From Candidatus Poribacteria bacterium (GTDB taxonomy: Bacteria > Poribacteria > WGA-4E > PCPOR2b), in the NCBI GenBank assembly GCA_965208325.1, contig OZ242326.1, positions 854,725 through 918,724 of the forward strand: a stretch of 64,000 nucleotides of DNA, read 5' to 3'. The notes under the pieces are model-generated. The model did not search any database, had not been told where the DNA came from, and saw nothing but the letters and a program-made list of their open reading frames with translations. A program made the position numbers and the translations under genes. Positions 37,238 to 64,000 of this stretch are shown one piece after another (the stretch's first letter is position 1; the number at the start of each line of letters is the position of its first letter).

Positions 37238-37277
37238 CAAGAGATTCAAATCGACGCAAGACGCAAGGAGAAGATTC

Positions 37278-39194: not shown

Positions 39195-39212
39195 CGACTT
39201 ATAGGGGAAAAA

Positions 39213-41816: not shown

Positions 41817-41855
41817 GGCATAATCGCAAACATTAAGAGTTCGGGGTCGTTCTTT

Positions 41856-42698: not shown

Positions 42699-43049
42699 CA
42701 TTTTCTAAGCATTAATTACGAATTGCTAAGTAGAAAATATATGTATCAATTGGAGGTAATCTGTAAAATCCGTCAAATCTTGTAAACTATTGTAAACTTG
42801 AATGATGCGACAAATGCGCGAGAAAATCGCTACATACGCTTAAGCGATTGCGACCGGCGTTTGAAGCTGCGGCTGAAGGATACAGTAACCAACTTAAATT
42901 AAATAGTAAATGGATACGGTGACTCTCAACACCCGGCAACGCCATTCGATCGCTCGTTAATCCATTCATTTGGTTGTAGTTAAAGTCACTATTCCCACGC
43001 GTTCCCTTCATCTTAACGCCCGCTTTAATTTAGCAAGGGAGAATACGAT

Positions 43050-43496
43050 ATGACAAAGCGAATTTGGGTACTTCTTGGAGTTGGAATTATCGCTATTGTC
43101 TTCATATTAATTGCTGTATTTGCAGTTCGATCTTGCGGACAGCCCCCGGCCGAGACTCCGGTCCCCGACGATGATGCAACATCAGCCGCTCCTAAGCCCA
43201 CACGCGCGATAAAACCTGCGCCCGCGTATGTATCCGTTTCAATCAACGCCGTTCCGTGGGCAGAGGTTTTCATAAGGACTCCTGGAAGCGCTCGATTCGT
43301 AAAACCGGGGACTAAATACTTTAATATCAAGCCTCCTTCCAATGGAAAGGATGCCCACGTCACTCCGATTCGCGGAAAATTGAAAGTGCCGGCCGGCACA
43401 GCGATAAAGTTGGTGTATGATGGACGAGAGAAAATTTTCCCTTACGAGTCTTGGAAGACAAGGCGTTCAATCTCACACGATTTTCTGGGGCAATAA
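43050..43496 (+). CDS. hypothetical membrane-anchored protein
   Basis: N-terminal TM 'IWVLLGVGIIAIVFILIAVFAV', then a Pro/Ala-rich linker. 148 aa. Confidence 0.45.
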   Translation: MTKRIWVLLGVGIIAIVFILIAVFAVRSCGQPPAETPVPDDDATSAAPKPTRAIKPAPAYVSVSINAVPWAEVFIRTPGSARFVKPGTKYFNIKPPSNGKDAHVTPIRGKLKVPAGTAIKLVYDGREKIFPYESWKTRRSISHDFLGQ

Positions 43497-43542
43497 CCTA
43501 TCATTAAATAGAGTCGCTGGTAGATTTTTGGTGATACTTAAA

Positions 43543-45897
43543 ATGAGATTTTTCGTCATTTTTACGAAATTAATCCTTTTGACGGTCTGGAATTCGTCAG
43601 TCGCCATGGCCCTTACATCGGAAGAGATTGCCAAGAAAGCGTTGGACGCTACTGTACTTCTTGTCATGGTCGATGTCAATGGCAAGGTCGAATCACAAGG
43701 CAGCGGGTTTTTTGTACAATCAAATCGCATTGTGACCAATTTCCACGTTATTGATGGTTTCACTAGAGGCGACGCAAAACCTGTTGGTCGACAGACGGTG
43801 TACCCGATTGAGCATGTCTCGGCGGTGGACAGGAAGCACAATTTGGCAATTTTACAGGTGTCGGCACCCGGAATTGAACCACTTTCCATAGGGAACAGTG
43901 CGTCAGTTGCGGTTGAAGATCAGATTTATGTCGTGGGCAATCCATTAGGCGTCCTTGAGGGCACATTCTCTGAAGGGATTATCAGTGCGATCCGAGAAGT
44001 GGATTCGGTAAAGCTGTTTGAGGTTACTGCACCCATCTCTGAGGGTAACAGCGGCGGTCCAGTGCTAAACGCCCAAGGCGAAGTAATTGGAGTTTCACAC
44101 GGAGCGGTCCCTGCAGGGCGGAATCTAAATTTTGCGATCCCGTCAATCCACATTCAAGTGCTCGCCAACAAATTGGGCAAAGAACTGCTAGAAAAGGGTA
44201 TTCTGCAATATGAAGCTACCCAATTCAATGAGGCAATAAAATCATTGCGATTAGCCCTAACCGAGCTTAGCGATTCGAAACTGCGAGCCGTTGCCCACCT
44301 TTACCTTGGATGCTCAAAACGAGGATATGGAGAATCTGATTACCCCGTTAGCGCGGCGTTTGTAGAGGCGCTTCGACACAATCCTGAACAGATGTTGCCG
44401 CCTAGAATAGGAGAGGACCACCCGGTTTTTAAACCGATGCTCGAAAAAGTACGGTCTGAGTCAACTGGGAAATTGACGGTTAACTGCTCACTCCCCGAAA
44501 CTGAAATCTGGATTGACGGGGAGGTAATTGACAGGAAAATGATTGGCAGCGGCAATGCCGCCGTCCGACTATTTGTGGGCGGCTACACCGCGGAGGGGGT
44601 TTTTGAAGACGTGTACCGAAAGGCCTCATTCTCTATTGTACCTGATGGGCATGAGATTCTTTATCTAGATATGCCGCCCGTATTAAGGCATGAACCCCCA
44701 TCTAGAGTTTCCGTCGGTGAGGTTATCTCTCTTTCTTTGGATATAATTAGCCGCGATAAGGCGAAGCAGGTTCAGATCCACTACACCATCTTCGACAGAA
44801 ACGGGGAAGAATTGGTCCGGGGGATGCAGGACATGCTTTTGTGGAAGGAACAGCCCATACCGTCTACGTGGATTCACCGCTCGGATTTGCCATCGCAAAC
44901 CACCGTAGGAAGAATTTCATATTTCATCATGGCGGATGAAGGAAGGTCTCCTACTAGTCAGTTTCATGAAATCGCAATTGTTGACGAGAATCTCCCAATA
45001 ATTGACCTGCTAGAGCCCCCTGAAACTGCCGAATTCAGGGTCAACCAATCCATTTCGGTTAGAGCAAAAGTAACTGATAACACCGCTATTGATGAGGTTC
45101 GTATTCATTATGCTTTCTCGAGTTCAGGCAATTCAAGACCTTCCGAGACAATTCCGTCTGAACCACTGGTGAAGGAAACCTCTGGCGACGTATATGCCGG
45201 GTTAATCCCGCCGCAAAAGAGCGGTCCCGGCTACATCTGGTATTATCTGACCGCAATTGATGAAGAAAATAACCAGCGCCGCTCCGATTTCAGACGAATA
45301 AGTATAGTAAAAATTCCCGATGAGCGGCCCATGATGCCGGCGATAATTAAACGAAGCGCCCCGGTACGCCTCCCACATCAGAGTGTATGGGCAAGCCTCG
45401 GGTTGTGGAACGATATTCTCAAATTACATCGACCTGATGCTTTTTCGTGGGAAAGAGGAAATGTAATCAGTCTCGGTTACTTGAGTGAAGGCAGGGGCTA
45501 TCCGACACTTGGCGTAAAACTGGATTATTCGTATCAGATTCGCGAAAACATAAATGCGACAATAGAATTGGGGCCTGCAATTAGAAACGCTGCAATCACA
45601 GTAGCATTACTGGGCGGTGTTGCACGGTACAAAAAAATTTACGATGAATCGAATCCAATTACACCTTTTCTCGGTGCGAGTTTAAGGCTTTACCCAATGG
45701 ATACCGTCACAATTGACATCGCAAGTTCGATTAATCTTAGGTCGTTTGACACCACTTCCATACAATTCCAGCACTACGAAATGGGCCTGCGGATTTACCT
45801 AACGCCAACTCTGAACCTCAAGTTAAGTTACGGAAATTGGTACATAAGAGAGCACGGAAACAAAAGCGTTCAGATTGGACTGGGGATTAAATTCTGA
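43543..45897 (+). CDS. trypsin-like (S1) serine protease with large C-terminal region ending in a putative outer-membrane beta-barrel
   Basis: Signal peptide 'MRFFVIFTKLILLTVWNSSVAMA'. Protease motifs 'GSGFFVQSNRIVTNFHVIDG' (His), 'NLAILQVS' (Asp region), 'GNSGGPVLN' (Ser). C-terminal amphipathic beta strands ending '...QIGLGIKF' (terminal Phe). The ORF's upstream in-frame start at 43417 is rejected for lacking a signal peptide. Confidence 0.65.
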   Translation: MRFFVIFTKLILLTVWNSSVAMALTSEEIAKKALDATVLLVMVDVNGKVESQGSGFFVQSNRIVTNFHVIDGFTRGDAKPVGRQTVYPIEHVSAVDRKHNLAILQVSAPGIEPLSIGNSASVAVEDQIYVVGNPLGVLEGTFSEGIISAIREVDSVKLFEVTAPISEGNSGGPVLNAQGEVIGVSHGAVPAGRNLNFAIPSIHIQVLANKLGKELLEKGILQYEATQFNEAIKSLRLALTELSDSKLRAVAHLYLGCSKRGYGESDYPVSAAFVEALRHNPEQMLPPRIGEDHPVFKPMLEKVRSESTGKLTVNCSLPETEIWIDGEVIDRKMIGSGNAAVRLFVGGYTAEGVFEDVYRKASFSIVPDGHEILYLDMPPVLRHEPPSRVSVGEVISLSLDIISRDKAKQVQIHYTIFDRNGEELVRGMQDMLLWKEQPIPSTWIHRSDLPSQTTVGRISYFIMADEGRSPTSQFHEIAIVDENLPIIDLLEPPETAEFRVNQSISVRAKVTDNTAIDEVRIHYAFSSSGNSRPSETIPSEPLVKETSGDVYAGLIPPQKSGPGYIWYYLTAIDEENNQRRSDFRRISIVKIPDERPMMPAIIKRSAPVRLPHQSVWASLGLWNDILKLHRPDAFSWERGNVISLGYLSEGRGYPTLGVKLDYSYQIRENINATIELGPAIRNAAITVALLGGVARYKKIYDESNPITPFLGASLRLYPMDTVTIDIASSINLRSFDTTSIQFQHYEMGLRIYLTPTLNLKLSYGNWYIREHGNKSVQIGLGIKF

Positions 45898-46062
45898 GCG
45901 TTCATACCTTTATTGTGACTACACTTATTATCCCCCAAATATCAATCTAAACACGTGCACGACGACACCGATATTTTTCCAACTTTACATCATCGCATTT
46001 CTCGCCCTTAACGGCGGATGCAAAGACGCAAGATGTGTCTTGGGTTGGCAACTCTTTGAATA

Positions 46063-46551
46063 TTGGAGATTCATGTGCTTCAATCAACGTTCAACCAACG
46101 CCTAGCGTCGTGCATTATTGTTGCATTGTTGATTTTTTTGAACATAGGTTGCGCTACAATTACGCGGGGTAGTAAACAAGAGATATCAATATCTAGTGAA
46201 CCACCGGGAGCATCTGTAACCATCGATAATCAGCTTTATGGGGTAACCCCTACGGCGGTGCAACTTGCTCGTTCCAAACCCCATTCGGTGTTCCTTCAAC
46301 TTGAAGGTTACGAACCCGTTTTAATACAGATTCAGTCACAACCCGATGCTGCTGTCGCGGGAAACTGTCTGATGTGTTGTTGTTTGGGTGTACCTGGCAT
46401 TGTAGCCTTTGCAGTAGACATAATAACGGGTTCCGGTCGAACGTTAACGCCTGAAACAATTCACGTAGTTTTAATCCCCTTTGATGTTATTCTACCACCA
46501 GAAGTTGGGCAAAAATGGTATGTACGTCGTGCCTCTAGCGGCGAAAGATAG
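46063..46551 (+). CDS. PEGA-domain lipoprotein
   Basis: Lipobox 'FLNIGC'. PEGA motif 'ISSEPPGASVTIDNQLYGVTP'. Cys-rich hydrophobic C-terminus. Confidence 0.55.
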   Translation: MEIHVLQSTFNQRLASCIIVALLIFLNIGCATITRGSKQEISISSEPPGASVTIDNQLYGVTPTAVQLARSKPHSVFLQLEGYEPVLIQIQSQPDAAVAGNCLMCCCLGVPGIVAFAVDIITGSGRTLTPETIHVVLIPFDVILPPEVGQKWYVRRASSGER

Positions 46552-46831
46552 ATGGGAGTATAAGCACCAGTGTCCAATAGAGTATAGCGTTACGACGAAA
46601 ATTACGGTTCCGACATGTCCAACTACATAATCGGCTATTCAAATAAAAAACCTGACGAGCGGCAATTAAATTTTTAGATCGATTTCAAATGCCTACTCCA
46701 GTGAGGAATTTCTAAACTTTACGTCTGAATTGCCTCGCGAATTCTTTCAACATCAGCTTCAAACAAGAAGACTGAGACCCTGACATTCGAACTAAGTCAT
46801 TGGCGAGCCTAGTTAGGTATTGGACTGTATT

Positions 46832-47443
46832 CTAATAAAACACTACACCAATTGCAAAACTGTCAATTGCCCCGGTAAACGAAAAAGCATACGTACCCGA
46901 AATTATCAAAGATGGAGAAACCGTTAGTTCTAACCCCATCGCCGCATTTACGTGGCCTTCATCGATTTCCAACTCATCATTCAGAAACTCCCAGTTGTAA
47001 TTGTATCCCACACCGAAAAAAGGCGCAAATTCCATTGGGCTTGATTCGGATTTCAGTCGTTTTAATAGACCGGCATAGCCGCCTAAGCCAAGTCCATAGA
47101 TGTGTAGGTCACTGGCAAGGTTTTGATATGAGCCCCCTCCCCCAATCGTGACAAACGAATCGAATCCCGTAGTGCCAAACGGAGCGATGTGCATAAAGTC
47201 TAGTGAGGCTGCGGGAGAGGGCGGAACATCTAATTCATCGAAAAACCGAATCGCACCGGTAAACGATGCTTTTGCGTTTGCGTCAATGCCATATTCGAGA
47301 TTGGCCCAAATGGCACGATTCATTTCAGTAAAGGCTAATCCAAGTCCAAATGTGCTTTGTGTGGGCGCCAACCGTTTAAAGCTTGCAAAAGCGCTTGTGG
47401 CACACACATAAAAGCAAATTGCAATAATGAAGATTTTTTTCAT
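46832..47443 (-). CDS. small outer-membrane beta-barrel protein (OmpA-like / porin family 3 type)
   Basis: Signal peptide 'MKKIFIIAICFYVCATSAFA', alternating hydrophobic beta pattern, Gly/aromatic-rich, C-terminal '...GVVFY'. The start is taken at the internal ATG 47443. Confidence 0.5.
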   Translation of the reverse strand: MKKIFIIAICFYVCATSAFASFKRLAPTQSTFGLGLAFTEMNRAIWANLEYGIDANAKASFTGAIRFFDELDVPPSPAASLDFMHIAPFGTTGFDSFVTIGGGGSYQNLASDLHIYGLGLGGYAGLLKRLKSESSPMEFAPFFGVGYNYNWEFLNDELEIDEGHVNAAMGLELTVSPSLIISGTYAFSFTGAIDSFAIGVVFY

Positions 47444-47595
47444 GGTAACTGGGTTCTCCATAAAACCAAGTGAGTTGCTAGATTTTTCTAGAACTTCATG
47501 ATGTAATTTTGTTGTCCGCAGTTGTAATGATTGCGGAATGTCAGATAGCGGCACGTATCAGGCCATCCCATGTAATGCGGATTTGGGAAAAAGGG

Positions 47596-47925
47596 TTATT
47601 CACCGTATACCGTTATAGTATAGGTGGCCACAATTCCTAGAACACTCTGTGAGTGTTGCTCAACATGGTGGATCTTGGTGATACCACCATTCCTAGCCGC
47701 CGTTTGGATACTTGCATCCCCTATTGCGACCCATCCAAGAATGGATTGTGCGAATGCCGTTCCTGATTTGAGCGGTTTGACATTGTTATCTATACTTGAA
47801 GGAATTGGTGCCTTTACATCGGAGTATAGAAAACCCGTAACGGGTTGTTTAGCCTGTGCAGCACATCCTGTCAGATACATAACCAGCAATAACGGGATTG
47901 TAACAGTAACAACAAATTTTGACAT
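47596..47925 (-). CDS. TRL-like small lipoprotein
   Basis: Lipobox 'MYLTGC'. 109 aa. 'GFLYSDVKAP...GDASIQTAARNGGITKIHHVE' resembles the TRL-domain family. Confidence 0.4.
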   Translation of the reverse strand: MSKFVVTVTIPLLLVMYLTGCAAQAKQPVTGFLYSDVKAPIPSSIDNNVKPLKSGTAFAQSILGWVAIGDASIQTAARNGGITKIHHVEQHSQSVLGIVATYTITVYGE

Positions 47926-48550
47926 GGTAAACTCCTTTTAATTGAGCAAAATAAAATCATCACCTATAATCATAGCCGGCATCGCTGTCCTTTATCACTT
48001 AATGCCGAACTTGTAGCGGCTTTGACCCCGCCCCCAATCTCAGAAGACGGCTTTCGCGATGCCTAGCAATCGGAATCACTAAACCCATTTGGAATTTAGC
48101 AGCAAATAACAGACAGAAATCGATGAACGCGTATCGTTTGGCAAGGAAATGATTTGCGCCGTACATCGGCATTTCAATCTTAGATTGACGCTCTTGTTAT
48201 TCTTCATTAAGTAATGATTTATGATACCACAAGAAACCTTTCTCGGCAACGCCAAAAATCTGCGAACGCCGGTTGACGGATACTCCTGTCCTAGTATAAA
48301 ATCTTAAATTTTCACAAATTGTATTTTACCGCCACCACGCATTATATCCGATACTGTCAGTAACGCTTTTTTTAATGAGAAAACTCATAGTTGAGAATCT
48401 ACCGCCGGATGCCACATAGAAACTGAAAATCATGTAAACTTCTTTAAACTTTGTAAACTTGATCGAGAGAAAATTTCATCAAAATTTACGTCGCTACAAC
48501 TTGACATACTTCGAGGTTTTGTCGACATCTCTTTATAAGGTTGTGGCATT

Positions 48551-48916
48551 ATGTTAAGAATGATGCCGATAACCTTACCTGATAACCAATGGGAAAAAAT
48601 ATATGAGTTTCTTCTGGGTTGTTCCAACATCTTTGTCCGCAACGAAGCCGAAACCCGACGATTCGTCGAAGCTGTCCTGTGGGTGGCTCGCAGCGGTGCG
48701 CAATGGAGATTATTGCCTACTGCTTATGGCAAGTGGAACTCCATTTACAAGCGGTTTAGTAACTGGTGCGACATAGGAATCTTCGAACATATGCACCGCC
48801 ACTTTGCCTCCGACCCAGATATGGCGTCGCTTATTATTGACTCGACCATTTGCCGGGCTCACCCATGCGCACCTGGCGCCTCAAAAAAAACGGGGGTGCC
48901 GAAAACCAAGCGTTAG
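48551..48916 (+). CDS. IS5-family transposase OrfA
   Basis: 'MLRMMPITLPDNQWEKIYEFL...AQWRLLPTAYGKWNSIYKRFSNWCDIGIFE', a conserved IS5/IS427 OrfA. Confidence 0.75.
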   Translation: MLRMMPITLPDNQWEKIYEFLLGCSNIFVRNEAETRRFVEAVLWVARSGAQWRLLPTAYGKWNSIYKRFSNWCDIGIFEHMHRHFASDPDMASLIIDSTICRAHPCAPGASKKTGVPKTKR

Positions 48917-49230
48917 GACGTTCTCGCGGCGGCTTCAGCACCAAGATTCACATCACAGTTGACGCACTAGGTAATCCGCTTAGACTCCAGCTAACCCCCG
49001 GTCAGAGACACGACATAGCTGAAGCCGAATCGTTGATAGTTGGATATAACAGCCAGCATGTAATTGGAGACAAAGGATATGACTCAGTTGAATTTATCAC
49101 CGTTATTGAAGCCAATGGTGCCATTCCGGTGATACCACCACGACGTAATCGTGGTGCTCAAAGAACATTCGACCCCCATTTATACAAAGAGAGACATCTA
49201 GTCGAATGTTTCATCAAAAAAAAATACTAA
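48850..49230 (+). CDS. IS5-family transposase OrfB (DDE domain), expressed by frameshift from OrfA
   Basis: 'GFSTKIHITVDALGNPLRLQLTPGQRHD...VIGDKGYDS', a DDE transposase motif. Confidence 0.7.
   Translation: MPGSPMRTWRLKKNGGAENQALGRSRGGFSTKIHITVDALGNPLRLQLTPGQRHDIAEAESLIVGYNSQHVIGDKGYDSVEFITVIEANGAIPVIPPRRNRGAQRTFDPHLYKERHLVECFIKKKY
48883..48890 (+). promoter_or_regulatory. A8 slippery run - candidate programmed -1 frameshift site in IS5 transposase
   Basis: 'TCAAAAAAAACGGGGG' lies inside the OrfA/OrfB overlap. Confidence 0.5.
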
Positions 49231-49614
49231 TCCACGCCACATCACCAACAGCGATTCACCATCCGTGGCAACGCCGCATGATTATGTGCCCACGTAATCA
49301 TAGCCCATCGTTTAATCATACAAATCACAGTTCAGACAGTCTTCTCAATAACGCAACACTACACCCGCCGCGGCAACAATATGTAGGTTTCATTTTGTTT
49401 TTCGAGATTCCCACCGAGCGCCAAAGAATGCCCTGAATCAGAATCCAAAACAACACTGTCCCAAAATTTCCCCTTCATACCCACCTGCAACGGCACAAAC
49501 CCTTGCCCCGTCCGCATCCAAGCGATGGATTTTTCAACCCTTTCCGCCAAAAACCCCGATAACCTCGCACTCCGCCTTGACAATCGCTAAATCTCAAAGT
49601 ATACTACAATTATT

Positions 49615-50148
49615 ATGCCAACTACAAATGTCCAATTCGGCGAATCGGACATTGACTTCACCATTGAGCGTTTTGCTTATTATGGTGAGGGAAAAGCTAA
49701 TGCGAAGCGCGTAATTCGTGATGTATGTGATTATTTTGGGATTGAAGACAATGCTAGCAATCATAAATTATTATCCAATAAAATTCGTACCTTTAATCCC
49801 AACCGAAAAGACTGCGCAGAGCATTATCGGAGTCGCTATCTCATGAAACGAAATCAGGTTCTTACACACAGACACGAACCCAACGGCATTTTTTCACAAC
49901 AGCTACATGCACTTTTACTCGTTGCATTCAAAGTTCTGTCTGAAGAGATGACGCCGCCCCTCGCACTCAAGCTCATTGAAGCCGAAATCCGATTCGCAAT
50001 TGAAAACAAACACATAAATGTTCAGGAAAGAATTGAACGACAATGTTTAGCCGCCGACACGGGAGATAGTTCATTTCTAAATGGAAAGACGGAGCCGGAT
50101 TTACGGAAACCACAGTCGGTTTCTGAAAATCCATCGCGCATACCATAG
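49615..50148 (+). CDS. hypothetical protein; could be a frameshifted N-terminal part of the downstream terminase
   Basis: 177 aa with no recognisable motif. Overlaps the terminase ORF by 68 nt. Confidence 0.3.
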   Translation: MPTTNVQFGESDIDFTIERFAYYGEGKANAKRVIRDVCDYFGIEDNASNHKLLSNKIRTFNPNRKDCAEHYRSRYLMKRNQVLTHRHEPNGIFSQQLHALLLVAFKVLSEEMTPPLALKLIEAEIRFAIENKHINVQERIERQCLAADTGDSSFLNGKTEPDLRKPQSVSENPSRIP

Positions 50149-51895
50149 TGTAAGCGTGCCGTCCGCCATTAAAAGAACTGGAGAGGAACAGGACATCTAT
50201 CTCCGCGGCTTCCATGATGTCCTCTTCTTTGCCAAGCATCACTTTCCCAATGTGTTTACGGTGGAGTGCGGTCCCCATGCTTCTCCTATTCTGAATTGCA
50301 TTCCTTCAGGTGAGCGCGGACAGCGCGTCAATATTATTGCGCCTAGAGGTTGCGGCAAAAGCACCTACATCGCCGTAATCTATGTGCTGCACTGCGTTTA
50401 CTACAAAGACGAATACGAACGGCGCGGCTTAATGCCCGATAGCTTCATCGTTATCCTGTGCGGTACCAAAGACCTCGCTGTGGCGCGGCTGCACGACATC
50501 CGAGACAAAATCGAGGACGATCCCAACTTCCGCCATCTCAAAGGAAACGGTAAGTGGAGCGCGGACCAGCTCGATACGGCAAACGGAGCATGCCTAATTC
50601 CCGTCGGGCGGCACGGAAGAATCCGCGGTGAACTCAAGGATCTCGCAAGACCGACGCTAATTATCCTCGACGATGTTGAAGACTGCGAGGAAGTCCAAAA
50701 CCCCCGTATCCGAGATAAAAACTGGAAATGGTTCAACGAAGATGTCATGGCTGCTGGTAGAATTGACGGCAAGACTAACTTCATCCACGTCGACACCGTA
50801 AAGCACGAGGAAGCCATCTCCAAGCGTCTGCAACTTCTGCCCGACTGGTACAACCAATTCTACCGTTCTATTGAACATCCCCGAGACCTACGCCACCCCA
50901 CCGCCGAACCGTTTTGGGAAGAGTGGCAGAAAATCTATACGGACTTGACGCTCGAAAAAGACGAGCGTGACCGCCTTGCGCATGCATTTCTTGAGGAACA
51001 CAAGAATGAAATGCTGGACGGCATCCAAGAACTCTGGCCCCAAATGCTCTCGTACACCTACATCCGGCGGCTCATCTGCAACGATGGCTATATCCCCGTC
51101 ATGCGTGAGCGGCAAAACTCGACACGCGACCCTTCTAAAGAAATTTTCAACATGGAAAAAGCCGTTCGCTTCAAAATCACGCCCGACGGACTCTTGCGTA
51201 GCGACGGGCGGCTAGTCCTATGGAGCGACATCGCTGGCGGTACAGTTTTCCTCGACTGGGCTGGCGGAAAGGACGCTTACGATTCCTGCTACGCCGCCGC
51301 TGTGTTTGTCGTGTGGGAACCGCTGCCTCAAGCGACTATGAGGCGTAAGGGAGAACCGGTTGCCGCCCTCTCTAACACCCACGCCTACGTCCTGAACGTC
51401 TGGATGGACAAAGTCCCCGTCACGACCCAACTCGAGGAGACTTTTAAACTCATAAAGCGCAGTGTCAGCGCTGTACCGAACATTCGATTCGATTCCATCC
51501 TGCTCGCAGTCGAGGAAATTCCGAAAGACACCGGTAACGCGTTACACACCATGATATCGCGGGCTTTTAAGGGTGCGCGGGAAAAATACGGCATGACCTC
51601 GTTAGTCCGCCTTAAATTCCACAAACGAAGTGTCCGGAAGTTGGACCGCATCGCCGCGTTGGAACCGCCAATCGCCAACGGTTGGCTCGTCTTCAATGAG
51701 ACGCTGCCAGAAGTGTTTATGCGCCAGATGCGGCAATTCCCGACCGGGGATTTCTGCGACGGTCCCGACGCCCTGCAAGGCGGGACTGAGTTGCCCATCA
51801 CGCGCTTCCCCGCCCATAAACTGCCGCACGGAATGCCGATGCCGTTCGACGACGATCCGGACGCGCCAATGCACGTTATAAGGAGTTATCTATGA
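50081..51895 (+). CDS. phage terminase large subunit (TerL) - ATPase plus RNaseH-like nuclease
   Basis: Walker A 'NIIAPRGCGKSTY', Walker B 'TLIILDDVEDCEE', C-terminal acidic nuclease region 'VFLDWAGGKDAYDSCYAAAVFVV'. The start codon is uncertain. Confidence 0.65.
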   Translation: MERRSRIYGNHSRFLKIHRAYHSVSVPSAIKRTGEEQDIYLRGFHDVLFFAKHHFPNVFTVECGPHASPILNCIPSGERGQRVNIIAPRGCGKSTYIAVIYVLHCVYYKDEYERRGLMPDSFIVILCGTKDLAVARLHDIRDKIEDDPNFRHLKGNGKWSADQLDTANGACLIPVGRHGRIRGELKDLARPTLIILDDVEDCEEVQNPRIRDKNWKWFNEDVMAAGRIDGKTNFIHVDTVKHEEAISKRLQLLPDWYNQFYRSIEHPRDLRHPTAEPFWEEWQKIYTDLTLEKDERDRLAHAFLEEHKNEMLDGIQELWPQMLSYTYIRRLICNDGYIPVMRERQNSTRDPSKEIFNMEKAVRFKITPDGLLRSDGRLVLWSDIAGGTVFLDWAGGKDAYDSCYAAAVFVVWEPLPQATMRRKGEPVAALSNTHAYVLNVWMDKVPVTTQLEETFKLIKRSVSAVPNIRFDSILLAVEEIPKDTGNALHTMISRAFKGAREKYGMTSLVRLKFHKRSVRKLDRIAALEPPIANGWLVFNETLPEVFMRQMRQFPTGDFCDGPDALQGGTELPITRFPAHKLPHGMPMPFDDDPDAPMHVIRSYL

Positions 51896-52132: not shown

Positions 52133-52636
52133 TTGGAGAGAGGCCGAGATATGACTAAAATTGTTAGCACGCTTCTCGCGTTTGGGGCTATAGCCGCTGT
52201 CATGCTTGTTTTCATTGTTACTCTTTTGCACAGCGACTCCTTCAATATACGTACGTCATCTGAGCCCGAGAGTGTTGAACTTGATGCGGCAAATCAGTCG
52301 CCAAATAATCTGGGATTGTCTTCCGAAGTGGACTTTTTGTTTGGGAGACCTAGATGGTTGCCGGGTGGGGTGATTCAAATTATCCCAACTGTCGGCGTGG
52401 ATTTTGGGTTCATCCGACCAATCGCATCCGGGTATGCTGTCGGAAGGTCATTCATGGTCGGTACGAGCACCACGCTATCCGATGAAGAGTTAGGTTTCAG
52501 CACAAAACATCGCGTCTCCTTTGAAACGGGAATCCGCGTTTACCTATCCCCTTCGCAGTATGTGTCGATCACTTGCGGCAAACAGTACGACGAAGATAGC
52601 GTTACGACAAACTTTAAAACTGCGTTGCGGCTTTAA
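52133..52636 (+). CDS. hypothetical membrane-anchored protein
   Basis: N-terminal TM 'IVSTLLAFGAIAAVMLVFIVTLL'. 167 aa. Confidence 0.4.
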   Translation: MERGRDMTKIVSTLLAFGAIAAVMLVFIVTLLHSDSFNIRTSSEPESVELDAANQSPNNLGLSSEVDFLFGRPRWLPGGVIQIIPTVGVDFGFIRPIASGYAVGRSFMVGTSTTLSDEELGFSTKHRVSFETGIRVYLSPSQYVSITCGKQYDEDSVTTNFKTALRL

Positions 52637-53945: not shown

Positions 53946-55778
53946 TTGCTGCGTTTTGCGAAAACACACAACGGCGTTGCCGTAAGATTTTTATCACAGC
54001 ATGGACCATCATTCAATTTCAGTCCGAACAATGGTAGGAAACCGCTGCTTCCAATTTTTCTCACAATTCAATTGACCGGTTTGATTGCTGCCGTTTTCGC
54101 GGCGGAGATATACGGGGGGCAAAAGGAGGAATCTATGATGCGAAGTGAACAACTAGTGGGTACCCCCAACACCCTGGATTTGGTAGAGCGGGCGCGGTAT
54201 GCGATTAACGCGATGACGCAAAGCACCAATCCGGAAGCGGAGTACGCGGTCTACTTCACCGGGGTGCTTCACCGCAATCCGCCGACGCTATTGAGGGAAA
54301 TCCCGCTGTACGGAAAATTCATGGAAGGGTTGGCTTTAATGCGCATCATGACGAGCGGCGAATTCGATACACGCGCATCTACGCAACCCGATGATTTTAA
54401 CCGGCATGTGGACCGCGTCTGGCGGGAAGCCTTTCTGCGCAAGCTAAAGAAACAGGAACTTACATTAGTTGGCGCCGAAGGCGGACGGCAGCTCGCTTGG
54501 TTGGCGATCCAATATCAACAGACCCAAGACTCAATGTGGAAAGAACTCGGCGAAACGGTGATTCAGCGGGCGCTAAAAACGACGGTCCATCAAAACGGCT
54601 ACTGCTATTTCCCGACTGACGCGGAAGGCACAATGCCGACGAGTTGGGAGGCGACCTACCAAGGGTGGACGCTCCAGGGCGTAACCCAATTTTATATGGC
54701 GACCGGCTCTGAAGCGGCGCTGGAACTGGCGGGCAAACTCGCCCGCTACTTGAAAGATCACTCCGGCATGTTTGATGCCGACGGACGCTTTCTCGCACGC
54801 CACGACGTTGATGTTCCGCTCGACCCGCCGGCTACACTTGGACCTGCGCTGCATTTCCACCACAATGGCAACACGATGGAAGCGCTCTCGGAGTATGCGT
54901 GGGCAAGCGGCGAATCGGAATTTGGAGAATTCGCCAAGAAATGCTACGAATACGCCCGTTCACTCCCCGACTCATCGCCGCTTATCGGCTTTTTCCAAGA
55001 GTACATCGACGATTGGCCCGATAACCGCGGTGTCATAGACTGCGAAACCTGCTGTGTCGTTGACATGATGTTGACTGCGCTCTGGATGACGAAGGCGGGC
55101 GTGGAGGATTATTGGGACGATATCGACCGATATTTGCGAAACCAGTTCGCCGAGATGCAGATGACCTCCGGAGATTGGTTAACCCGGATGACAGAAGCAC
55201 TGCCGTATCGGCCGCCGGGCGAGGGCGAAATTGCCATGGGGTCGCCGGACCGCTGGGTCGGCACCTTCGCCGGTTGGGCGACTGCCAATGACTTCTTCGC
55301 CATCGGCGCAGGTCCCGGCATCATGCACTGCTGCACCGGCAACGGGTCACGGGCGCTTTACTACCTTTGGGAGAATATGCTTGAGTTCAGCGGCGGAGAG
55401 TTACGGCTCAATCTACTGCTCAACCGGAATTCTCCGTGGGTCGAGGTCAGCAGCCGCATCCCGTATGAAGGCAAGGTTGAGTTGAAGGTCAAGGCGGGGT
55501 GTGAAAATATTTCGGTTCGCGCGCCCGAATGGGTGGAAGGCTCAAACGGCGCAATGTCGTGCCGCGTTAACGGCGCCTCCCGAAACTTCAGTTGGAAGGG
55601 CCGCTGTGTACACATCGGCAAAGCCGCACCCGGTGATAAAGTTGAAATTACATTTCCCATATCGAATCGGACGGTGGAAGAAACGGTAGGCGGTGTGCCG
55701 TACACGCTTGTAATCCGGGGCAATAACGTGATTTCCATCTCTCCGCCGGGGAAGCATTACCCTTTTTATAACCGATAA
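53946..55778 (+). CDS. DUF1680 / GH127-like six-hairpin glycoside hydrolase family protein, membrane-anchored (paralog 1)
   Basis: N-terminal anchor 'LLPIFLTIQLTGLIAAVFAA'. 'DCETCCVVD' (E-x-C, 55041-55055) and 'HCCTGNG' (55327-55345) match the Glu/Cys/Cys-Cys zinc/catalytic arrangement described for GH127 beta-L-arabinofuranosidase. C-terminal beta-sandwich. Confidence 0.45.
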   Translation: MLRFAKTHNGVAVRFLSQHGPSFNFSPNNGRKPLLPIFLTIQLTGLIAAVFAAEIYGGQKEESMMRSEQLVGTPNTLDLVERARYAINAMTQSTNPEAEYAVYFTGVLHRNPPTLLREIPLYGKFMEGLALMRIMTSGEFDTRASTQPDDFNRHVDRVWREAFLRKLKKQELTLVGAEGGRQLAWLAIQYQQTQDSMWKELGETVIQRALKTTVHQNGYCYFPTDAEGTMPTSWEATYQGWTLQGVTQFYMATGSEAALELAGKLARYLKDHSGMFDADGRFLARHDVDVPLDPPATLGPALHFHHNGNTMEALSEYAWASGESEFGEFAKKCYEYARSLPDSSPLIGFFQEYIDDWPDNRGVIDCETCCVVDMMLTALWMTKAGVEDYWDDIDRYLRNQFAEMQMTSGDWLTRMTEALPYRPPGEGEIAMGSPDRWVGTFAGWATANDFFAIGAGPGIMHCCTGNGSRALYYLWENMLEFSGGELRLNLLLNRNSPWVEVSSRIPYEGKVELKVKAGCENISVRAPEWVEGSNGAMSCRVNGASRNFSWKGRCVHIGKAAPGDKVEITFPISNRTVEETVGGVPYTLVIRGNNVISISPPGKHYPFYNR

Positions 55779-55829
55779 TGGATTTGCGCCTGTCTTAAGC
55801 TAACTAATCTGAACAAATGCGCCCTCAAT

Positions 55830-57731
55830 TTGATTCGTGGTAGTTTGATATGCGCCGCACAATTCAACCTACCTACTAATGTCAATGACGATGATATGAC
55901 ATATCCCAACGATTCACTAATCGGTCTTATAGAAAAAGACCCATCAACAATGAGACGGCTATGCATTTTCAATCCCTCGAAACGTTGGAAACTGAGACTC
56001 CCATTATTTCGCGCGATTCTGCCGATCGGGTTAATTGCCGCCGTTTTCGTTTCGGGGGGCTACGGAAAGCTCAAGGAGGAACCAACGATGCAAAATGAAC
56101 AATTAGCAGAGGCACCCAACACGCTGGATTTGGTAGAGCGGGCTGGGTATGCGATTAACGCGATGACGCGAAGCACCAATCCGGAAGCGGAGTACGCGGT
56201 CTACTTCACCGGCGTGCTCCACCGCAACCCGCCGACCCTATCAGGGCAAATTCCACTGTACGGAAAATTCATGGAAGGGACGGCGTTGATGCGCATTATG
56301 ACGAGCGGCGAATTCAACACACGCCCATCTTCCCAACCCAAGGATTTCAATCGACACGTGGACCGCGTCTGGCAAGATGCGTTTGTGCGGTTACTGACTG
56401 AAAGTAAGCCGGTGCTTACGGGACCCGAAGGCGGACGGCAACTCGCATGGTTAGCCATTCAGTATCGGCGGACGAATAACGAAATGTGGAAAGAACTCGG
56501 TGAATCGGCGATTCAGCGCGCGCTTGATGCGGCAGTCCATCAAGATGGCTACTGTTATTTCCCGCACGGCGCAGAAGGGACGATGCCGACGGGCTGGGGG
56601 GCGACCTACCAAGGGTGGACGCTTCAAGGGCTCAGCCAGTTTCATATTGCGACCGGTTCGGACGTTGCACTGGAACTGGCGGGCAAACTTGCCCGCTATT
56701 TGAAGGATTACGCTGGCGTTTTTGATGCGGACGGCCGGTTTCTATCGCGCCACGGCGATTCCATTCCGCACAGCCCGCCAGCCACACTGGGACCTGCACT
56801 GCATTTCCACCACAACGGCAATGCGATGGAAGGGCTGATGGAGTACGCGTTGGCGAGCGGCGATGCGGAATATGCTGAATTCGCGAAAAAATGCTATGAA
56901 TACGCCCGTTCGCTCCCCGACTCATCGCCGCTTATCGGCTTTTTTCAGGAGTACATTGACGATTGGCCCGATAACCGCGGCGTCATTGACTGCGAAACCT
57001 GCTGTGTTGTTGACATGATGCTGACGGCGCTCTGGATGACGAAGGCGGGTGTTGGCGATTATTGGGACGACATTGACCGGTACATGCGGAACCAGTTCGC
57101 CGAGATGCAGATGACCACCGGAGATTGGCTGGAAAAAATGAATGAAGGGCTATCATATCAACCGCCGGGCGATGATGAGATTGCGATGGGTTCACCTCAG
57201 CGTTGGATCGGCACCTTCGCCGGTTGGGCGACTGCCAATGACTTCTTCGCCATCGGTGCAGGTCCAGGTATTATGCACTGCTGCACCGGCAACGGGTCAC
57301 GGGCGCTTTACTATCTCTGGGAAAATACGCTAGAATACAACGACGGAGAGTTACGGCTCAATCTGCTTCTTAACCGGCAATCTCCATGGGTGCAAGTCAG
57401 CAGCCATATCCCGTATGAAGGCAAGGTTGAGTTGAAGGTCAAGGCAGGGTGTGAAAATATTGCCGTTCGCGCGCCCGAATGGGTGGAAGGGTCGAGCGGC
57501 GTACTGTCGTGCCGCGTCAACGGCGCCGTCCGCAAAATTAGTTGGACGGACCGCTATGTGCACATCGGTGAAGCGGCGCCTGGCGACACAGTTGAACTCG
57601 CATTTCCGATATCTGAACGGACGGTCGAGGAAACAGTTGGCGGTGTTCCTTATACGCTTGTAATCAGGGGAAATAACGTGGTTTCCATCTCACCGCAGGG
57701 AAAGAATTATCCGTTTTACCACCGTAATTAA
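55830..57731 (+). CDS. DUF1680 / GH127-like protein, tandem paralog 2
   Basis: About 75% amino-acid identity to paralog 1 with identical 'DCETCCVVD' and 'HCCTGNG' motifs. Long stretches of near-identical DNA. Confidence 0.45.
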   Translation: MIRGSLICAAQFNLPTNVNDDDMTYPNDSLIGLIEKDPSTMRRLCIFNPSKRWKLRLPLFRAILPIGLIAAVFVSGGYGKLKEEPTMQNEQLAEAPNTLDLVERAGYAINAMTRSTNPEAEYAVYFTGVLHRNPPTLSGQIPLYGKFMEGTALMRIMTSGEFNTRPSSQPKDFNRHVDRVWQDAFVRLLTESKPVLTGPEGGRQLAWLAIQYRRTNNEMWKELGESAIQRALDAAVHQDGYCYFPHGAEGTMPTGWGATYQGWTLQGLSQFHIATGSDVALELAGKLARYLKDYAGVFDADGRFLSRHGDSIPHSPPATLGPALHFHHNGNAMEGLMEYALASGDAEYAEFAKKCYEYARSLPDSSPLIGFFQEYIDDWPDNRGVIDCETCCVVDMMLTALWMTKAGVGDYWDDIDRYMRNQFAEMQMTTGDWLEKMNEGLSYQPPGDDEIAMGSPQRWIGTFAGWATANDFFAIGAGPGIMHCCTGNGSRALYYLWENTLEYNDGELRLNLLLNRQSPWVQVSSHIPYEGKVELKVKAGCENIAVRAPEWVEGSSGVLSCRVNGAVRKISWTDRYVHIGEAAPGDTVELAFPISERTVEETVGGVPYTLVIRGNNVVSISPQGKNYPFYHRN

Positions 57732-57784: not shown

Positions 57785-58090
57785 TTAGCACTTGACCTGG
57801 ATTTCGCCATCCTCAACGAGAACGTCATAAGATTTCACTTGTAACCGCACATCGGTGCGGCACACGCCGGTTTCGACATCGTATGCGTAACCGTGAACCG
57901 GACAGATTGCCAAGCCGTTTTTAATGCGTCCTCTGCCGAGTGACCCCAGGGCGTGGGCGCATGTATTATCAAGCGCGTAAAAATTCTCGCCATCGTTGAA
58001 AACCGCAATACGTTTTCCGTTTATGGTGAAGGCTTTCCCCCGCCCGACGGGAATATCCGACGTTTTTGCCACGGGCGCATAAGATGACAT
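57785..58090 (-). CDS. Rieske [2Fe-2S] domain protein (NirD-like small subunit)
   Basis: 'CAHALGSL...CPVHGYAYD' (CxH...CxxH). 101 aa. Confidence 0.7.
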   Translation of the reverse strand: MSSYAPVAKTSDIPVGRGKAFTINGKRIAVFNDGENFYALDNTCAHALGSLGRGRIKNGLAICPVHGYAYDVETGVCRTDVRLQVKSYDVLVEDGEIQVKC

Positions 58091-58476: not shown

Positions 58477-60582
58477 TCACGCATTCTGAGCATCATCATC
58501 TTCCATCTTCTTTACCAACCGGTCAATCCTTTGAAACTGCCACGTCCAGCGGACATTGTAGAGAAATTGCCTGAGGTCAAATCGATTGTCATCAGGCGAA
58601 TAGGATTCGGCATGATATGAAGGCGTCAACGTTGTCATCTTATGGCGGTTGAGTGAATAGTGGTAGAAAAAATACCTGACCTTTGCAGCCACTTCCTGGC
58701 GCGAAAGATGATGCCACTCATGAACCAATTTCTCAAACATGTTTACTGGCCCGCACCGATCTATTTTGCGGAGCCTTCCGAACCGGCTAAGTTCCTGGTA
58801 GGTCAACCCCATATCCGCTTCGTCTTCCTGCGTATACGACTCGGTGATGGGTTCTAGCTCCGCTGTCGGCGGCGCGTCCAAAACATCGTTAAGAATCGTA
58901 TACCCCAGATTTTCCGCCGCCCACCGCAAAAACCGGCGGAGATCCTCCTTGCTTATTCCCCCAATCGGATTTATGTCAGCGCTGCTGCAGTCGTATTTTG
59001 TTACGTAGCCGCGCAGGCTCTCATCCACATTCGCCGTTCCCAGCACCAGCAATACCCCGCGTTTGCCGCGCACCCACGGCAACAGTTGCGCCAATAGGTA
59101 GGAAAATACCATGCGAAGGCGTGCTTGGATGTTCTGCAGAGCGGTGTTTTCCGATGCCGTGCCGCCGTCCACCTTGAACCGCGGAGTTTTCTGGGTCAGC
59201 TTTATAAAGAGGGAGAGCATTGCAGCGACGACGGAATCAATATTGACATTCAGGTGGTACGCCCCAATCTGATCCGCCAACTCTTTTGCACGCGTGCGTG
59301 TCACCTTTGAGCTGTTCACAGTCGCCAGATAGCATGTGTGGAGAATTCGGTTGGCGAATTCACGCGCATCGGTCGGCAGATAGCCGCCCGCCTCGTCTTC
59401 TCCGGCGATGCGGCGAGCGTCTCGGATGACCGCACGATTCCCCGCCTTTGCTTCTTTGGCTACCATTTGGCACATCGATCCGACCAAGGTAGCAACCGTG
59501 GAACTATCCGCTCCCCCCGAGATTGGCAGGAAATACCCCGCTGCACCGGAGCGCCTCAGATAATCCCATAGCCAGCATGCCGGGCCGTAAGCAATTTCGC
59601 CTTCCGGTGTGTGATAGCGAATCTCTATCGGCGGGGACGGCGCAAGTCCATAATCCTCGGCGGTAAGGTCGAAATCCACAGCAACTCTGGGAACCAATTC
59701 CGATTGGCTCGCCTGCACGCCGCGGCTAGTTTTCGCCCCGCGATACGAGCGGACATCTTCCAAATCGAGCGTGGCGGTTAACACTTCGATGTCGTTTAGC
59801 GAAAACTGTGTTCCTTGCGCCACAATCTCGCCGTTAACGGCTATCATGGCACAGCCGTCGAAGTAAAGACGTCCCCCATCGCAGCCTTGCTGGTTTGCAT
59901 AGAGGTAGATCCCGCCGGCTTTTGACGTGGCGTTGCGGATGAGATTTACGCGCTGGTCGAGTTTACGAAGTTCGTGATGCGATCCCGATGCGTTGGTGAT
60001 AATCTCAACCCCGTTCAAGCTGAGGTAGATATGCGGGCTATTCGGTGCAAAAAGCCCCTCACAAGTTTCCGCCGCAAGCACAGTGTCGCGCGTCGCGACG
60101 GCGGCATCGCCGAACGGGACGGTATCCTGACCCGTGATTTCCCGAATCATGCGCGGCAGATAGAAGTCTTCTAGCGTCTTGGAATGCTGCCACGCTGCGA
60201 ACCACCGCATTTCACGGTAATTTCCGTCCGCCGCGAGAATCGGCTTCGGTATAATCAGGACAATTTTTCGATCCAGCACGAGAATGCGGCAGTTGTACCG
60301 CACATTTTTGTGCATCACCGGCATCCCGATATCGCAAAGCATGCTTGTTGTCAAATCCCCACTGAGTATCTCGGCGAGGCATTCCCACGAATGAAGAAAA
60401 GTATCCTGCTCCAAAAAATGATCTTCGCATCCGTAACCGGAAATCTCTAATTCGGGACCGACGCGATACCGTGCTCCCTTTTCTTTTGCAATCTGAGTCG
60501 AGGCAACAATTCGCTCAAGATTTCCTTCGAAGTCCATCGCCCATTGATTGAGATTGCAGGTTGCGAGGGTTACTAATTTCAT
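58477..60582 (-). CDS. nadE: glutamine-dependent NAD(+) synthetase (CN-hydrolase plus NAD synthetase domains)
   Basis: N-terminal nitrilase domain ('[24 protein letters not shown]', catalytic Cys 'GCDGG' region), PP-loop '[16 protein letters not shown]'. 701 aa. Confidence 0.85.
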
Positions 60583-62322: not shown

Positions 62323-63276
62323 TTAATTTTGCAATTCATGCAGCAAATCTACCCAACTCAGGCGTTCTCGTGCGGGGTCTACCAGCGGTTTAAGCCGTTC
62401 GCACCACCCCTTGACGGTATTGTAAAACGCCGGGTCTGTCTCAATTCGCTCTAGGAGTTTCGCCAATGCGTACGTATCGCCTACCGGAAAGTAGCCCGGA
62501 TAATCCTCGCCGAGTAGACCGATTGATCCGGATATTTGCGACGAAATGACGGGCACCGAACAGGCGATCGCCTCGCCAACCACATTCGCGCCGCCCTCCA
62601 TCTGTGAAGTCAACACGAGCGCACGGCAGCGGGCTAACCGGCGAAGTGCCTTCCACCGAGGAATTTCCCCTAACCAACGATAGCGCGGATTGGATGCTTC
62701 CTCTGCTCTTGCGGTTATTTCCGTATCTTCGCTTAAGGCGCCGCCGATATGCACCACCTGGACTCGCGAGTGGGCGCGCAGGGAGCGGGAAGCTATCGCC
62801 GTCCGGAATGGGTCCTTCACGGGACGCAAATGTCCAATCACGCACACCTCAAAGACATCCTTTTTCGGAGAAAAGGCGCGTGGCGGTTTCTTTACGGATT
62901 GGTAAATGACGCTTGCCTTGCCTCGCAAGTGTACCGGAAGTTCATCAATTCCCATCGCTTGCAGCACGATGAACCTCGACGCTATCTCCAGCGATTCTTG
63001 AGCGTACGAATCGATATGGATATCGCTGTACAGATCTGTTCCGGTCAACGCCAGGATAAGTGGTAGGTCGGGGTATTTTCCCCGAAAGCGTTTAATGGAA
63101 ACATAACTGCGGCGTGCGTGAAGCGCGACCATCAAATCGCACCGCTCGCCGCCATACGTTTGCTGAACCAGGACACGGTGACCAAGTTCGCGCAATATGC
63201 GAGCCCAGCGCAGCGCTGTTACACGGTTTCCTTTGCGGGAGCGCGGCGGCGCCGGGGTAATCATACAAATTTTCAT
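62323..63276 (-). CDS. small GT-B-fold glycosyltransferase (SenB-like?)
   Basis: 'MKICMITPAPPRSRKGNRVTALRWARILRELGHRV' N-terminal GT-B Rossmann, C-terminal 'EGGANVVGEAIACSVPVISSQISG' (EX7E-like nucleotide-sugar region). 317 aa. Confidence 0.5.
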   Translation of the reverse strand: MKICMITPAPPRSRKGNRVTALRWARILRELGHRVLVQQTYGGERCDLMVALHARRSYVSIKRFRGKYPDLPLILALTGTDLYSDIHIDSYAQESLEIASRFIVLQAMGIDELPVHLRGKASVIYQSVKKPPRAFSPKKDVFEVCVIGHLRPVKDPFRTAIASRSLRAHSRVQVVHIGGALSEDTEITARAEEASNPRYRWLGEIPRWKALRRLARCRALVLTSQMEGGANVVGEAIACSVPVISSQISGSIGLLGEDYPGYFPVGDTYALAKLLERIETDPAFYNTVKGWCERLKPLVDPARERLSWVDLLHELQN

Positions 63277-63361: not shown

Positions 63362-64000
63362 TCAGTCGCACGCACAGGTGCGAAATCCAGCCAGCACATC
63401 CCGCCGATCCGGCGTGTAGAAATTGCGCCAGGTGTTGCGCAGCATCCGGGAACGCGTTGTCCAGCACCCGCCGCGCAGCACTTTTCGAGATCCAAACCAG
63501 GGGGCGGAATACTCCTTGTACAGGTCAACCTCAAAACCCGGATAAGGGTGAAAACTGCTGCTCGTCCATTCCCATACATTGCCAATCATTTGGCGGCAGC
63601 CGAAGCCGCTGTCCCCCTCCGGTAATGCGTTTACACTGACGCAACCCATCTGATTCCAATCCAAGTTAGCCCGCTCGGGCGTATGCGGTTCGCTGCCCCA
63701 AGGGAAGCGCCGCTTCGCCGACGAAAGCCCCTCACCGCCAAGGCGCGGTTCTGCGGCGGCGGCAACCTCCCACTCAACCTCTGTTGGGAGCCGGCGCTTC
63801 GCCCAACGGCAGTACGCTTCAACCTCATACCAGTTGACATGGATTACGGGAAGGCGGGGTTCGAGCGGCACCCATTCGCCAAAATGCCGCCGCAACCATT
63901 CGCCATCCGTGTCGCAACGCCAGTAGACGGGATGTTGCGCCGCCTCCGAGTTACGCCAATCCCATCCGTCCGAACTCCAGAGGTCTCTTCGGCGGTAACC
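63362..64000 (-). CDS. EgtB/FGE-sulfatase-family sulfoxide synthase, C-terminal part (gene continues beyond window end)
   Basis: 'VIHVNWYEVEAYCRWAKRRLPTEVEWE', 'GNVWEWTSS', 'RVLRGGCWTTRSRMLRNTWRNFYTPDRRDVLAGFRTCACD', the EgtB/OvoA/FGE C-terminal signature. The frame is open to the window edge. Confidence 0.65.
   Translation of the reverse strand, partial: GYRRRDLWSSDGWDWRNSEAAQHPVYWRCDTDGEWLRRHFGEWVPLEPRLPVIHVNWYEVEAYCRWAKRRLPTEVEWEVAAAAEPRLGGEGLSSAKRRFPWGSEPHTPERANLDWNQMGCVSVNALPEGDSGFGCRQMIGNVWEWTSSSFHPYPGFEVDLYKEYSAPWFGSRKVLRGGCWTTRSRMLRNTWRNFYTPDRRDVLAGFRTCACD

Follow-up and report, generated by a model that had tools for sequence, protein, structure and literature searches.

Two adjacent and closely similar genes in a 64,000-nucleotide stretch of a sponge-symbiont Candidatus Poribacteria genome (contig OZ242326.1, positions 854,725 to 918,724; referred to here as the window) raise the question of what kind of enzyme they encode, and whether their duplication has been followed by a division of tasks. 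A first-pass annotation, made from the DNA letters, described the products as membrane-anchored paralogs related to glycoside hydrolase family 127 (GH127, or DUF1680), with a zinc site of the beta-L-arabinofuranosidase type and substrate recognition that had become subfunctionalized. The pair belongs to a branch of the GH127/GH146 enzymes (clan GH-P) that is large, uncharacterized, and deeply divergent, and with moderate confidence both genes are predicted, from conserved residues and the modeled fold, to encode retaining zinc-activated cysteine glycosidases of the clan GH-P type.

Both open reading frames (ORFs) are present on the forward strand as annotated. Paralog A (positions 53946 to 55778) codes for 610 amino acids (aa) from the first in-frame TTG and is organized as a leader of about 65 to 73 residues, an (alpha/alpha)6 barrel, and one beta-sandwich. 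Paralog B (55830 to 57731) is co-oriented and separated from it by 51 bp. Its ORF does extend for 633 aa from the first in-frame TTG, but this length is probably an over-extension. Long-form start codons occupy one shared alignment column in all eight copies from four genomes (five ATG, two TTG, and one GTG), giving products of 605 to 612 aa, and because this column is common to all eight, the start of paralog B is best placed at ATG 55896, for a product of 611 aa. The two proteins are 78% identical over 586 residues with no gaps (BLASTP, E = 0), which upholds the paralogy and corrects the earlier figure of about 75%; the DNA is 80% identical over 610 aligned codons. The long runs of identical DNA mentioned by the annotation are present but modest, the longest being 49 nt, followed by 42, 41, and 38 nt.

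A divergent branch of the GH127/GH146 enzymes

A word-indexed search finds 280 family homologues, mostly of about 610 aa, the named matches coming from Chloroflexota/Anaerolineae and Armatimonadota metagenome-assembled genomes (MAGs). A family profile compared with 50%-identity representatives matches 2,713 clusters at E ≤1e-3 and 777 at E ≤1e-30. A handful of members have parallel beta-helix domains fused to them, and a few carry the NCBI label 'glycoside hydrolase family 127 protein'. Pfam model PF07944 (GH127 catalytic domain) matches 43 of 48 aligned family members, with a best E of 6e-10, and PF20736 (GH127 middle domain) matches 22 of the 48, the window proteins themselves excepted. Paralogs A and B score 27.0 and 25.9 bits against PF07944, which is narrowly above its gathering score of 24.9.

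The relationship is on firmer ground at the level of the whole family. Alignment of the family by hhalign with seven canonical GH127 sequences from plasmid records gives a probability of 98.4% (E = 4e-15), and the confident alignment stops at residue 552 of the 640-aa S. meliloti GH127. Searched against the PDB, the family profile matches the GH146 entry 5opj (E = 0.003, 18.9 bits) and the GH127 entry 4qjy (E = 0.03, 15.6 bits), with both alignments placing the Cys-Cys pair on Cys-Cys and including the beta-sandwich that follows. The profile scores thus favor GH146 and the structural search described below favors GH127 (5e-14 versus 1e-12), and the family is effectively about equidistant from the two. 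The annotated GH127-like identity stands as a distant kinship, seen alike by Pfam, hhalign, and Foldseek; it is qualified by the marginal Pfam score and by an altered sugar pocket.

The predicted structure agrees with this placement. An AlphaFold2 model (mean predicted local distance difference test score, 80; predicted template-modeling score, 0.83) has residues 1 to 73 disordered, 12 long helices between residues 79 and 477, and a sandwich from residue 479 to about 600. In paralog A, the predicted (alpha/alpha)6 barrel containing these 12 helices spans residues 75 to 478 (positions 54168 to 55379), and the C-terminal beta-sandwich spans residues 479 to 610 (55380 to 55775), with strands from 479 to 591. 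The sandwich is equivalent to beta-sandwich 1 of GH127, and residues 479 to 600 align with the middle domain of both GH127 and GH146 in profile alignments. In a Foldseek search of the PDB, the top 21 matches all belong to GH127 or GH146 or are BT1003 (E of 5e-14 to 1e-10), and a different class of structure first appears at 1.5e-6. The barrel expected by the annotation is the one predicted. Identity to any solved GH127 or GH146 structure is about 14% in the Foldseek alignments.

Active-site residues and predicted chemistry

Both copies contain the DCETCC and HCCTGNG motifs that drew attention to the locus. In paralog A these are at positions 55038 to 55055 (residues 365 to 370) and 55326 to 55346 (residues 461 to 467), and in paralog B they are at 56988 to 57005 and 57276 to 57296 (residues 387 to 392 and 483 to 489 of the 633-aa ORF), all on the forward strand. 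C462 follows E367 by 95 residues, close to the 90 or so first estimated. In the hhalign alignment, E367-T-C369 falls on the E-T-C of GH127 and C462-C463 on its C-C, and the Glu/Cys plus Cys-Cys zinc arrangement proposed by the annotation thus occupies the same profile columns at the sequence level. H303 aligns with the His of the GHAVR motif, which is H270 in the GH127 enzyme HypBA1. The literature numbering of HypBA1 residues E322, E338-T-C340, and C417-C418 was confirmed by counting along the PDB alignment.

These positions are strongly conserved. All four predicted zinc-ligand positions (E367, C369, C462, and C463) are kept in 249 of the 259 sequences that cover both motifs (96%), and 233 of the same 259 keep E352 along with them. 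Counted singly among 267 sequences, E367 is present in 260, C369 in 255, C462 in 261, and C463 in 260; the additional cysteines of DCETCC are poorly kept across the family (C366 in 157 and C370 in 115). E352, at positions 54999 to 55001 on the forward strand (E374 of paralog B, at 56949 to 56951), is invariant in the 48 aligned members and is Glu in 244 of the 267, and it is the candidate acid/base.

The nucleophiles of the characterized enzymes are C417 in HypBA1 and C416 in BtGH146, with zinc bound by a Cys3-Glu set (PMC10728902), and in the GH146 enzyme Bll3HypBA1 every zinc-ligand and acid/base mutant is inactive (PMC10850190). In the window proteins, E367, C369, C462, and C463 would hold Zn2+, and the zinc-bound thiolate of C462, the predicted nucleophile as well as a ligand, would attack the anomeric carbon to give a thioglycosyl intermediate. 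A glutamate would serve as general acid/base, most likely the invariant E352. This residue is 5 residues downstream of the GH127 acid/base column and 15 before E367, and the position of the acid/base already varies within the clan, because its distance to the zinc-binding Glu is 16 residues in HypBA1 and 29 in GH146. The sugar specificity is probably unlike that of HypBA1, given that a conserved His (H306) takes the place of R273 of the -1 subsite, in a confident stretch of the alignment, and that other pocket residues are not detectably kept: no conserved His or Tyr stands opposite HypBA1 H142, Y145, or H194, in a region where the alignment has low confidence. The paralogy, the purifying selection, the class of fold, the homology to GH127/146, the conserved zinc-ligand positions, the lost RR motif, and the translation of the leader are shown by the analysis; that zinc is bound and a glycoside hydrolyzed, which residue is the acid/base, what the substrate is, and where in the cell the enzymes end up are matters of inference.

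Several observations weigh against a glycosidase of this type. The acid/base Glu of GH127 (in N-E-G-F; E322 in HypBA1) aligns not to a Glu but to I347 (in I-G-F). The PF07944 match is marginal and spans profile positions 46 to 166 of 376, which is the generic hairpin region only; a search of both proteins against NCBIfam gives no match, and single-sequence phmmer against the PDB finds nothing significant. The second beta-sandwich (PF20737) is absent, the protein ending after one sandwich, and this model matches none of the 48 family members. Genomic context adds little comfort: the nearest NCBIfam models to the major facilitator superfamily (MFS) transporter encoded upstream are efflux/antiporter types, all far under cut-off, eight family loci from other organisms have no recurrent neighbor gene, and sugar-metabolism neighbors are obvious at only two of these eight (L021 and L024). 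With no neighbors shared, the context points to no substrate.

The specificity implied by the annotation would make these ordinary GH127 beta-L-arabinofuranosidases, acting on arabinofuranoside-containing algal or plant glycans. The zinc-ligand motif agrees with GH127, a few family members bear that name at NCBI, and GH127 is reported to be enriched in sponge symbionts (PMC8163846), but the low identity to solved GH127 and GH146 enzymes, the replacement of R273 by H306, the lack of conserved counterparts of H142, Y145, and H194, the displaced acid/base Glu, and the missing second sandwich all argue the other way. GH127 moreover already spans other specificities, including a carrageenan-related activity and that of BT1003, and the arabinofuranosidase assignment is improbable as well as unsupported by the pocket. 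It is also conceivable that these (alpha/alpha)6 proteins catalyze some other reaction, as an AGE epimerase/isomerase or a GH88/GH105 unsaturated uronyl hydrolase would, and that the Cys/Glu set is only a structural metal site. At E ≤0.01, however, the 48 family members give no match to a Pfam model for AGE, GH88, or GH105, whereas PF07944 and PF20736 do match among them; the profile and Foldseek evidence is specific to GH127 and GH146, the attached beta-sandwich aligns with that of GH127, and the four-residue zinc and nucleophile set is conserved at the level given above, which leaves little room for this alternative.

Zinc-activated cysteine glycosidases of the clan GH-P type therefore remain the preferred reading for both genes. 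To our knowledge, cysteine-nucleophile glycosidases are mechanistically unusual, and only those of GH127 and GH146 have been characterized. The family described here is large, is found mainly in Chloroflexota and Poribacteria, and is barely visible to the Pfam GH127 model; it keeps the zinc and cysteine machinery with a changed sugar pocket, and it is thus a reasonable target in the search for new specificity. Counts of 'GH127' in sponge-symbiont metagenomes have been read as arabinose use (PMC8163846), and counts that include the clade of the window proteins would not justify that reading.

Duplication, selection, and the N-terminal leader

The two genes are ancient tandem paralogs. The closest loci are all in Candidatus Poribacteria MAGs, and the window shares the tandem arrangement with the three closest (L001, L002, and L003) of seven related Poribacteria genomes; the four more distant ones (L004 to L007, about 61 to 65% identity) have a single copy. 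In L001 (OZ242351.1), copies A and B are 87% and 96% identical to the window proteins, and identity is 96% for the flanking Rieske gene and 98% for the NAD-synthase gene, with gene order conserved. The A copies group with one another across genomes and not with the B copy of their own genome, which marks the duplication as old.

Purifying selection acts on both copies. The ratio of nonsynonymous to synonymous substitution rates (dN/dS) between paralogs, a comparison that the annotation had proposed, comes to 0.16 across the mature domain (dN 0.107, dS 0.65), and it is 0.07 to 0.16 in comparisons with orthologs. In the motif-bearing segments (residues 331 to 390 and 451 to 480) it falls to 0.02. 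Recent gene conversion was considered as the source of the near-identical motif blocks in the window and rejected, because dS there is 0.5 to 0.65, and purifying selection accounts for them. As a separate observation, residues ~487 to 526 in L001 form a recent gene-conversion tract, with 97% nucleotide identity between A and B versus 88% between orthologs; gene conversion occurs occasionally in the duplicated clade. Tandem paralogy and the TTG start of paralog A might suggest that one copy is a decaying or nonfunctional duplicate, but both copies retain every catalytic-motif residue, the dN/dS values are low between paralogs and toward orthologs alike, and the pair is kept in all four genomes of the clade, so that decay of either copy is very unlikely.

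Divergence between the copies is not spread over the N-terminal third, as had been thought, but is concentrated in the leader (the first ~65 residues) and recurs in shorter patches at residues 151 to 180, 271 to 300, and 541 to 570. In 30-residue windows, identity is 27 to 50% at residues 1 to 60, 73 to 87% at 61 to 150, 60% at 151 to 180, 67 to 80% at 181 to 330, 97 to 100% at 331 to 390 and 451 to 480, and 67% at 541 to 570. Positive selection or subfunctionalization was rejected, as no segment of the mature domain has a dN/dS above 0.26, and the proposal that substrate recognition has been subfunctionalized is left unsupported rather than disproved, the strong divergence being in the leader.

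The leader has a distinct history. The family consensus N-terminus is SRRxFLK, the Pfam twin-arginine translocation (Tat) model TAT_signal matches 5 of 48 members, and an RR-hydrophobic motif is present in 78 of 221 complete N-termini. Single-copy Poribacteria relatives have a textbook Tat signal (SISRRRFLMMAGTSAVALAV; N-terminus SISRRRFLMMAG). None of the eight copies in the duplicated clade retains the twin arginine; at the aligned place they have at most one Arg (PIFL in A and PLFR in B). A new, positively charged extension of ~35 residues comes before this place, and a hydrophobic stretch of 16 to 20 residues and a charged GGYGKxKEE linker come after it. In paralog A the hydrophobic segment is LLPIFLTIQLTGLIAAVFAA (54045 to 54104, forward strand), with a Kyte-Doolittle 19-residue maximum of 2.15 and net positive charge before it, and it aligns with the Tat h-region of the single-copy relatives. 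The corresponding segment of paralog B is LPLFRAILPIGLIAAVFVSG (55998 to 56057, forward strand), with a maximum of 2.06 and a net charge of +6 in the 15 residues before it.

This part of the protein evolves almost free of amino-acid constraint, with a dN/dS of 0.63 and pairwise differences at the three codon positions of 0.31/0.30/0.33, versus 0.10/0.07/0.32 in the mature part. Its reading frame is nonetheless open in all eight copies, whereas 5000 simulations of neutral evolution along the estimated tree never gave this outcome and left on average 6.1 copies interrupted, and because of this and the retention of the long-form start column in all eight, the leader is judged on sequence grounds to be translated. 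The family would ancestrally have been Tat exported, with the twin-arginine motif decaying in the duplicated Poribacteria lineage and the leader persisting as a translated, fast-evolving hydrophobic segment that may act as a signal-anchor or as a Sec-type signal. The annotation had favored N-terminal anchors over cleavable signals. A hydrophobic, translated leader fits that description, but anchor status itself is put in doubt by permissible signal-peptidase sites found by inspection (V-F-A|A in A and V-S-G|G in B) and by an alternative start inside each gene.

In paralog A an internal, Shine-Dalgarno-like AAGGAGG is followed by ATG ATG (M64 and M65; 54123 to 54140, forward strand), a possible start for a leaderless protein of 546 to 547 aa, and in paralog B an AAGGAGG precedes the ATG of M87 (56073 to 56090, forward strand), a possible alternative start. 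Initiation at 54135 and 56088 would yield leaderless cytoplasmic enzymes of ~547 aa, perhaps beside the long form, and would bear on localization only. The AAGGAGG lies 5 to 8 nt 5' of the ATG in both paralogs, GAGGA with ATG or GTG is kept in all eight copies from the four genomes, and elsewhere in the window few real gene starts have a GGAGG ahead of them. Consistent with such starts are also the lack of codon-position periodicity in the leader, the loss of the twin arginine, the division of public gene calls for relatives between ~610 and ~546 aa, and the need of HypBA1-type enzymes for reduced cysteines. Set against them are the frame that stays open in every copy and in none of the simulations, the conserved column of long-form start codons, and the hydrophobic stretch kept in all copies; a Met is also found at this place in Tat-bearing single-copy relatives and need not be a start. 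Leaderless cytoplasmic products are thus a possibility to be taken seriously, though not the likelier outcome, and dual initiation may give a membrane or exported form plus a cytoplasmic isoform from the same gene.

The duplication and the gene neighborhood are ordinary, and the enzyme annotation is credible but also fairly ordinary. The more interesting points are whether these proteins are a family of their own within clan GH-P and what became of the Tat leader in the duplicated lineage. A tentative, and on balance doubtful, extension of the cysteine-glycosidase reading is that they represent a third, as yet uncharacterized family-level branch of the clan, with a relocated acid/base Glu, a single sandwich, a new sugar specificity, and ancestral Tat export (with zinc presumably prebound), the Tat signal having been remodeled here into a membrane anchor and a cytoplasmic isoform possibly arising through the internal ribosome-binding site. 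A search of the literature gave nothing specific on a Tat-exported DUF1680 protein or on a new clan GH-P family.

Gene neighborhood and comparison with known systems

The MFS transporter gene (PF07690; 52682 to 53896, forward strand) is co-oriented with paralog A and ends 49 bp upstream of it. It adjoins copy A in L002, is separated from it in L001, and is absent from L003. Import of the released sugar by this transporter was considered and rejected, given its efflux-like models, the broken adjacency in L001, and its absence in L003, and any functional link between the transporter and the glycosidase pair is weak. The gene between the transporter and copy A in L001 (5971 to 7836) codes for a 621-aa secreted trypsin-like protease with many tetratricopeptide (TPR) repeats. 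Directly upstream of the MFS gene in the window is a 167-aa ORF (52133 to 52636, forward strand) with an N-terminal hydrophobic segment; it has no family match in Pfam, NCBIfam, or PHROGs, and its conservation extends to L001 (83% identity) and, in part, to L003. Downstream of the pair, on the reverse strand, are genes for a 101-aa Rieske/NirD-like ferredoxin (57785 to 58090) and a 701-aa glutamine-dependent NAD synthase with CN-hydrolase and NAD_synthase domains (58477 to 60582), both syntenic with the pair in L001 to L003. Promoter and terminator scans are at shuffled expectation.

The two family loci with obvious sugar-metabolism neighbors differ from each other. L021, a single-copy Poribacteria locus, has GH95, GFO/IDH/MocA oxidoreductase, and PfkB kinase genes nearby, and L024 has a sugar ABC transporter. 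A 472-aa ORF without a Pfam match (9746 to 11164 in L021) overlaps the end of the glycosidase gene by 4 nt, which suggests translational coupling; no equivalent of this ORF follows the pair in the window.

Farther upstream, the window contains a low-GC stretch (34352 to 51895; GC content of 0.44 to 0.47 between 36 and 50 kb versus 0.50 to 0.55 elsewhere) that looks like a defense or mobile island. It codes for a UvrD-helicase/PD-(D/E)XK nuclease fusion (34352 to 37237; GajB/DRT-helicase-like in PADLOC), a type III-like DNA methylase (37224 to 39194), a ResIII helicase with a TnsA-like endonuclease end (39213 to 41816), an 826-aa trypsin-like protease (43417 to 45897; RT-protease-like in PADLOC), a PEGA-domain protein (46063 to 46551), and a phage terminase large subunit (50081 to 51895; phrog_38, E = 2e-47), with no other recognizable phage genes nearby. 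The 826-aa protease is encoded ~8 kb upstream of the pair and differs from the L001 protease. At the right end of the window, on the reverse strand, are genes for a GT4 glycosyltransferase (62323 to 63276) and for a protein with an FGE-sulfatase (sulfatase-modifying factor-like) domain (63362 to 63895).

Among known systems, generic six-hairpin enzymes (GH88, GH105, GH76, and AGE epimerases) lack both the Cys3-Glu site and a GH127-type beta-sandwich, and the Pfam models for them hit none of the family members. The best Foldseek matches (5e-14 to 6e-13) are to HypBA1 of Bifidobacterium longum (PDB 3wkw and 3wrg) and Ara127N of Geobacillus (4qjy), which, like the window proteins, place a beta-sandwich after an (alpha/alpha)6 barrel. 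E338, C340, C417, and C418 of HypBA1 correspond column for column to the E-x-C...C-C of the window proteins, as H270 does to their conserved His. The window proteins lack the second beta-sandwich, which is the dimerization domain in HypBA1, they have 95 residues between the Glu and the Cys-Cys pair compared with 79 in HypBA1, and, unlike HypBA1, their family ancestrally carries a Tat signal.

The GH146 enzymes BT0349 (PDB 5opj and 6yqh) and Bll3HypBA1 (8k7x) have the same clan GH-P Cys3-Glu zinc site and are matched by Foldseek at ~1e-12, but they have two beta-sandwiches plus extra modules, whereas the window proteins have a single sandwich. Their acid/base Glu is 29 residues before the zinc Glu (E694 and E723), in contrast to 15 for the candidate in the window proteins, and their sugar-pocket residues differ from those of GH127 and are not evidently shared by the window proteins. 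The highest TM-score to the model (0.52, E = 4e-11) is that of BT1003 (PDB 5mqo), an aceric-acid-releasing enzyme. BT1003 and the carrageenan-pathway GH127 enzymes use the same fold and zinc-cysteine machinery on sugars other than beta-L-arabinofuranose (beta-L-Araf); they are of canonical length and strongly recognized by the GH127 models (S. meliloti GH127, for example, matches 5mqo at 1e-85), whereas the window proteins are recognized only marginally.

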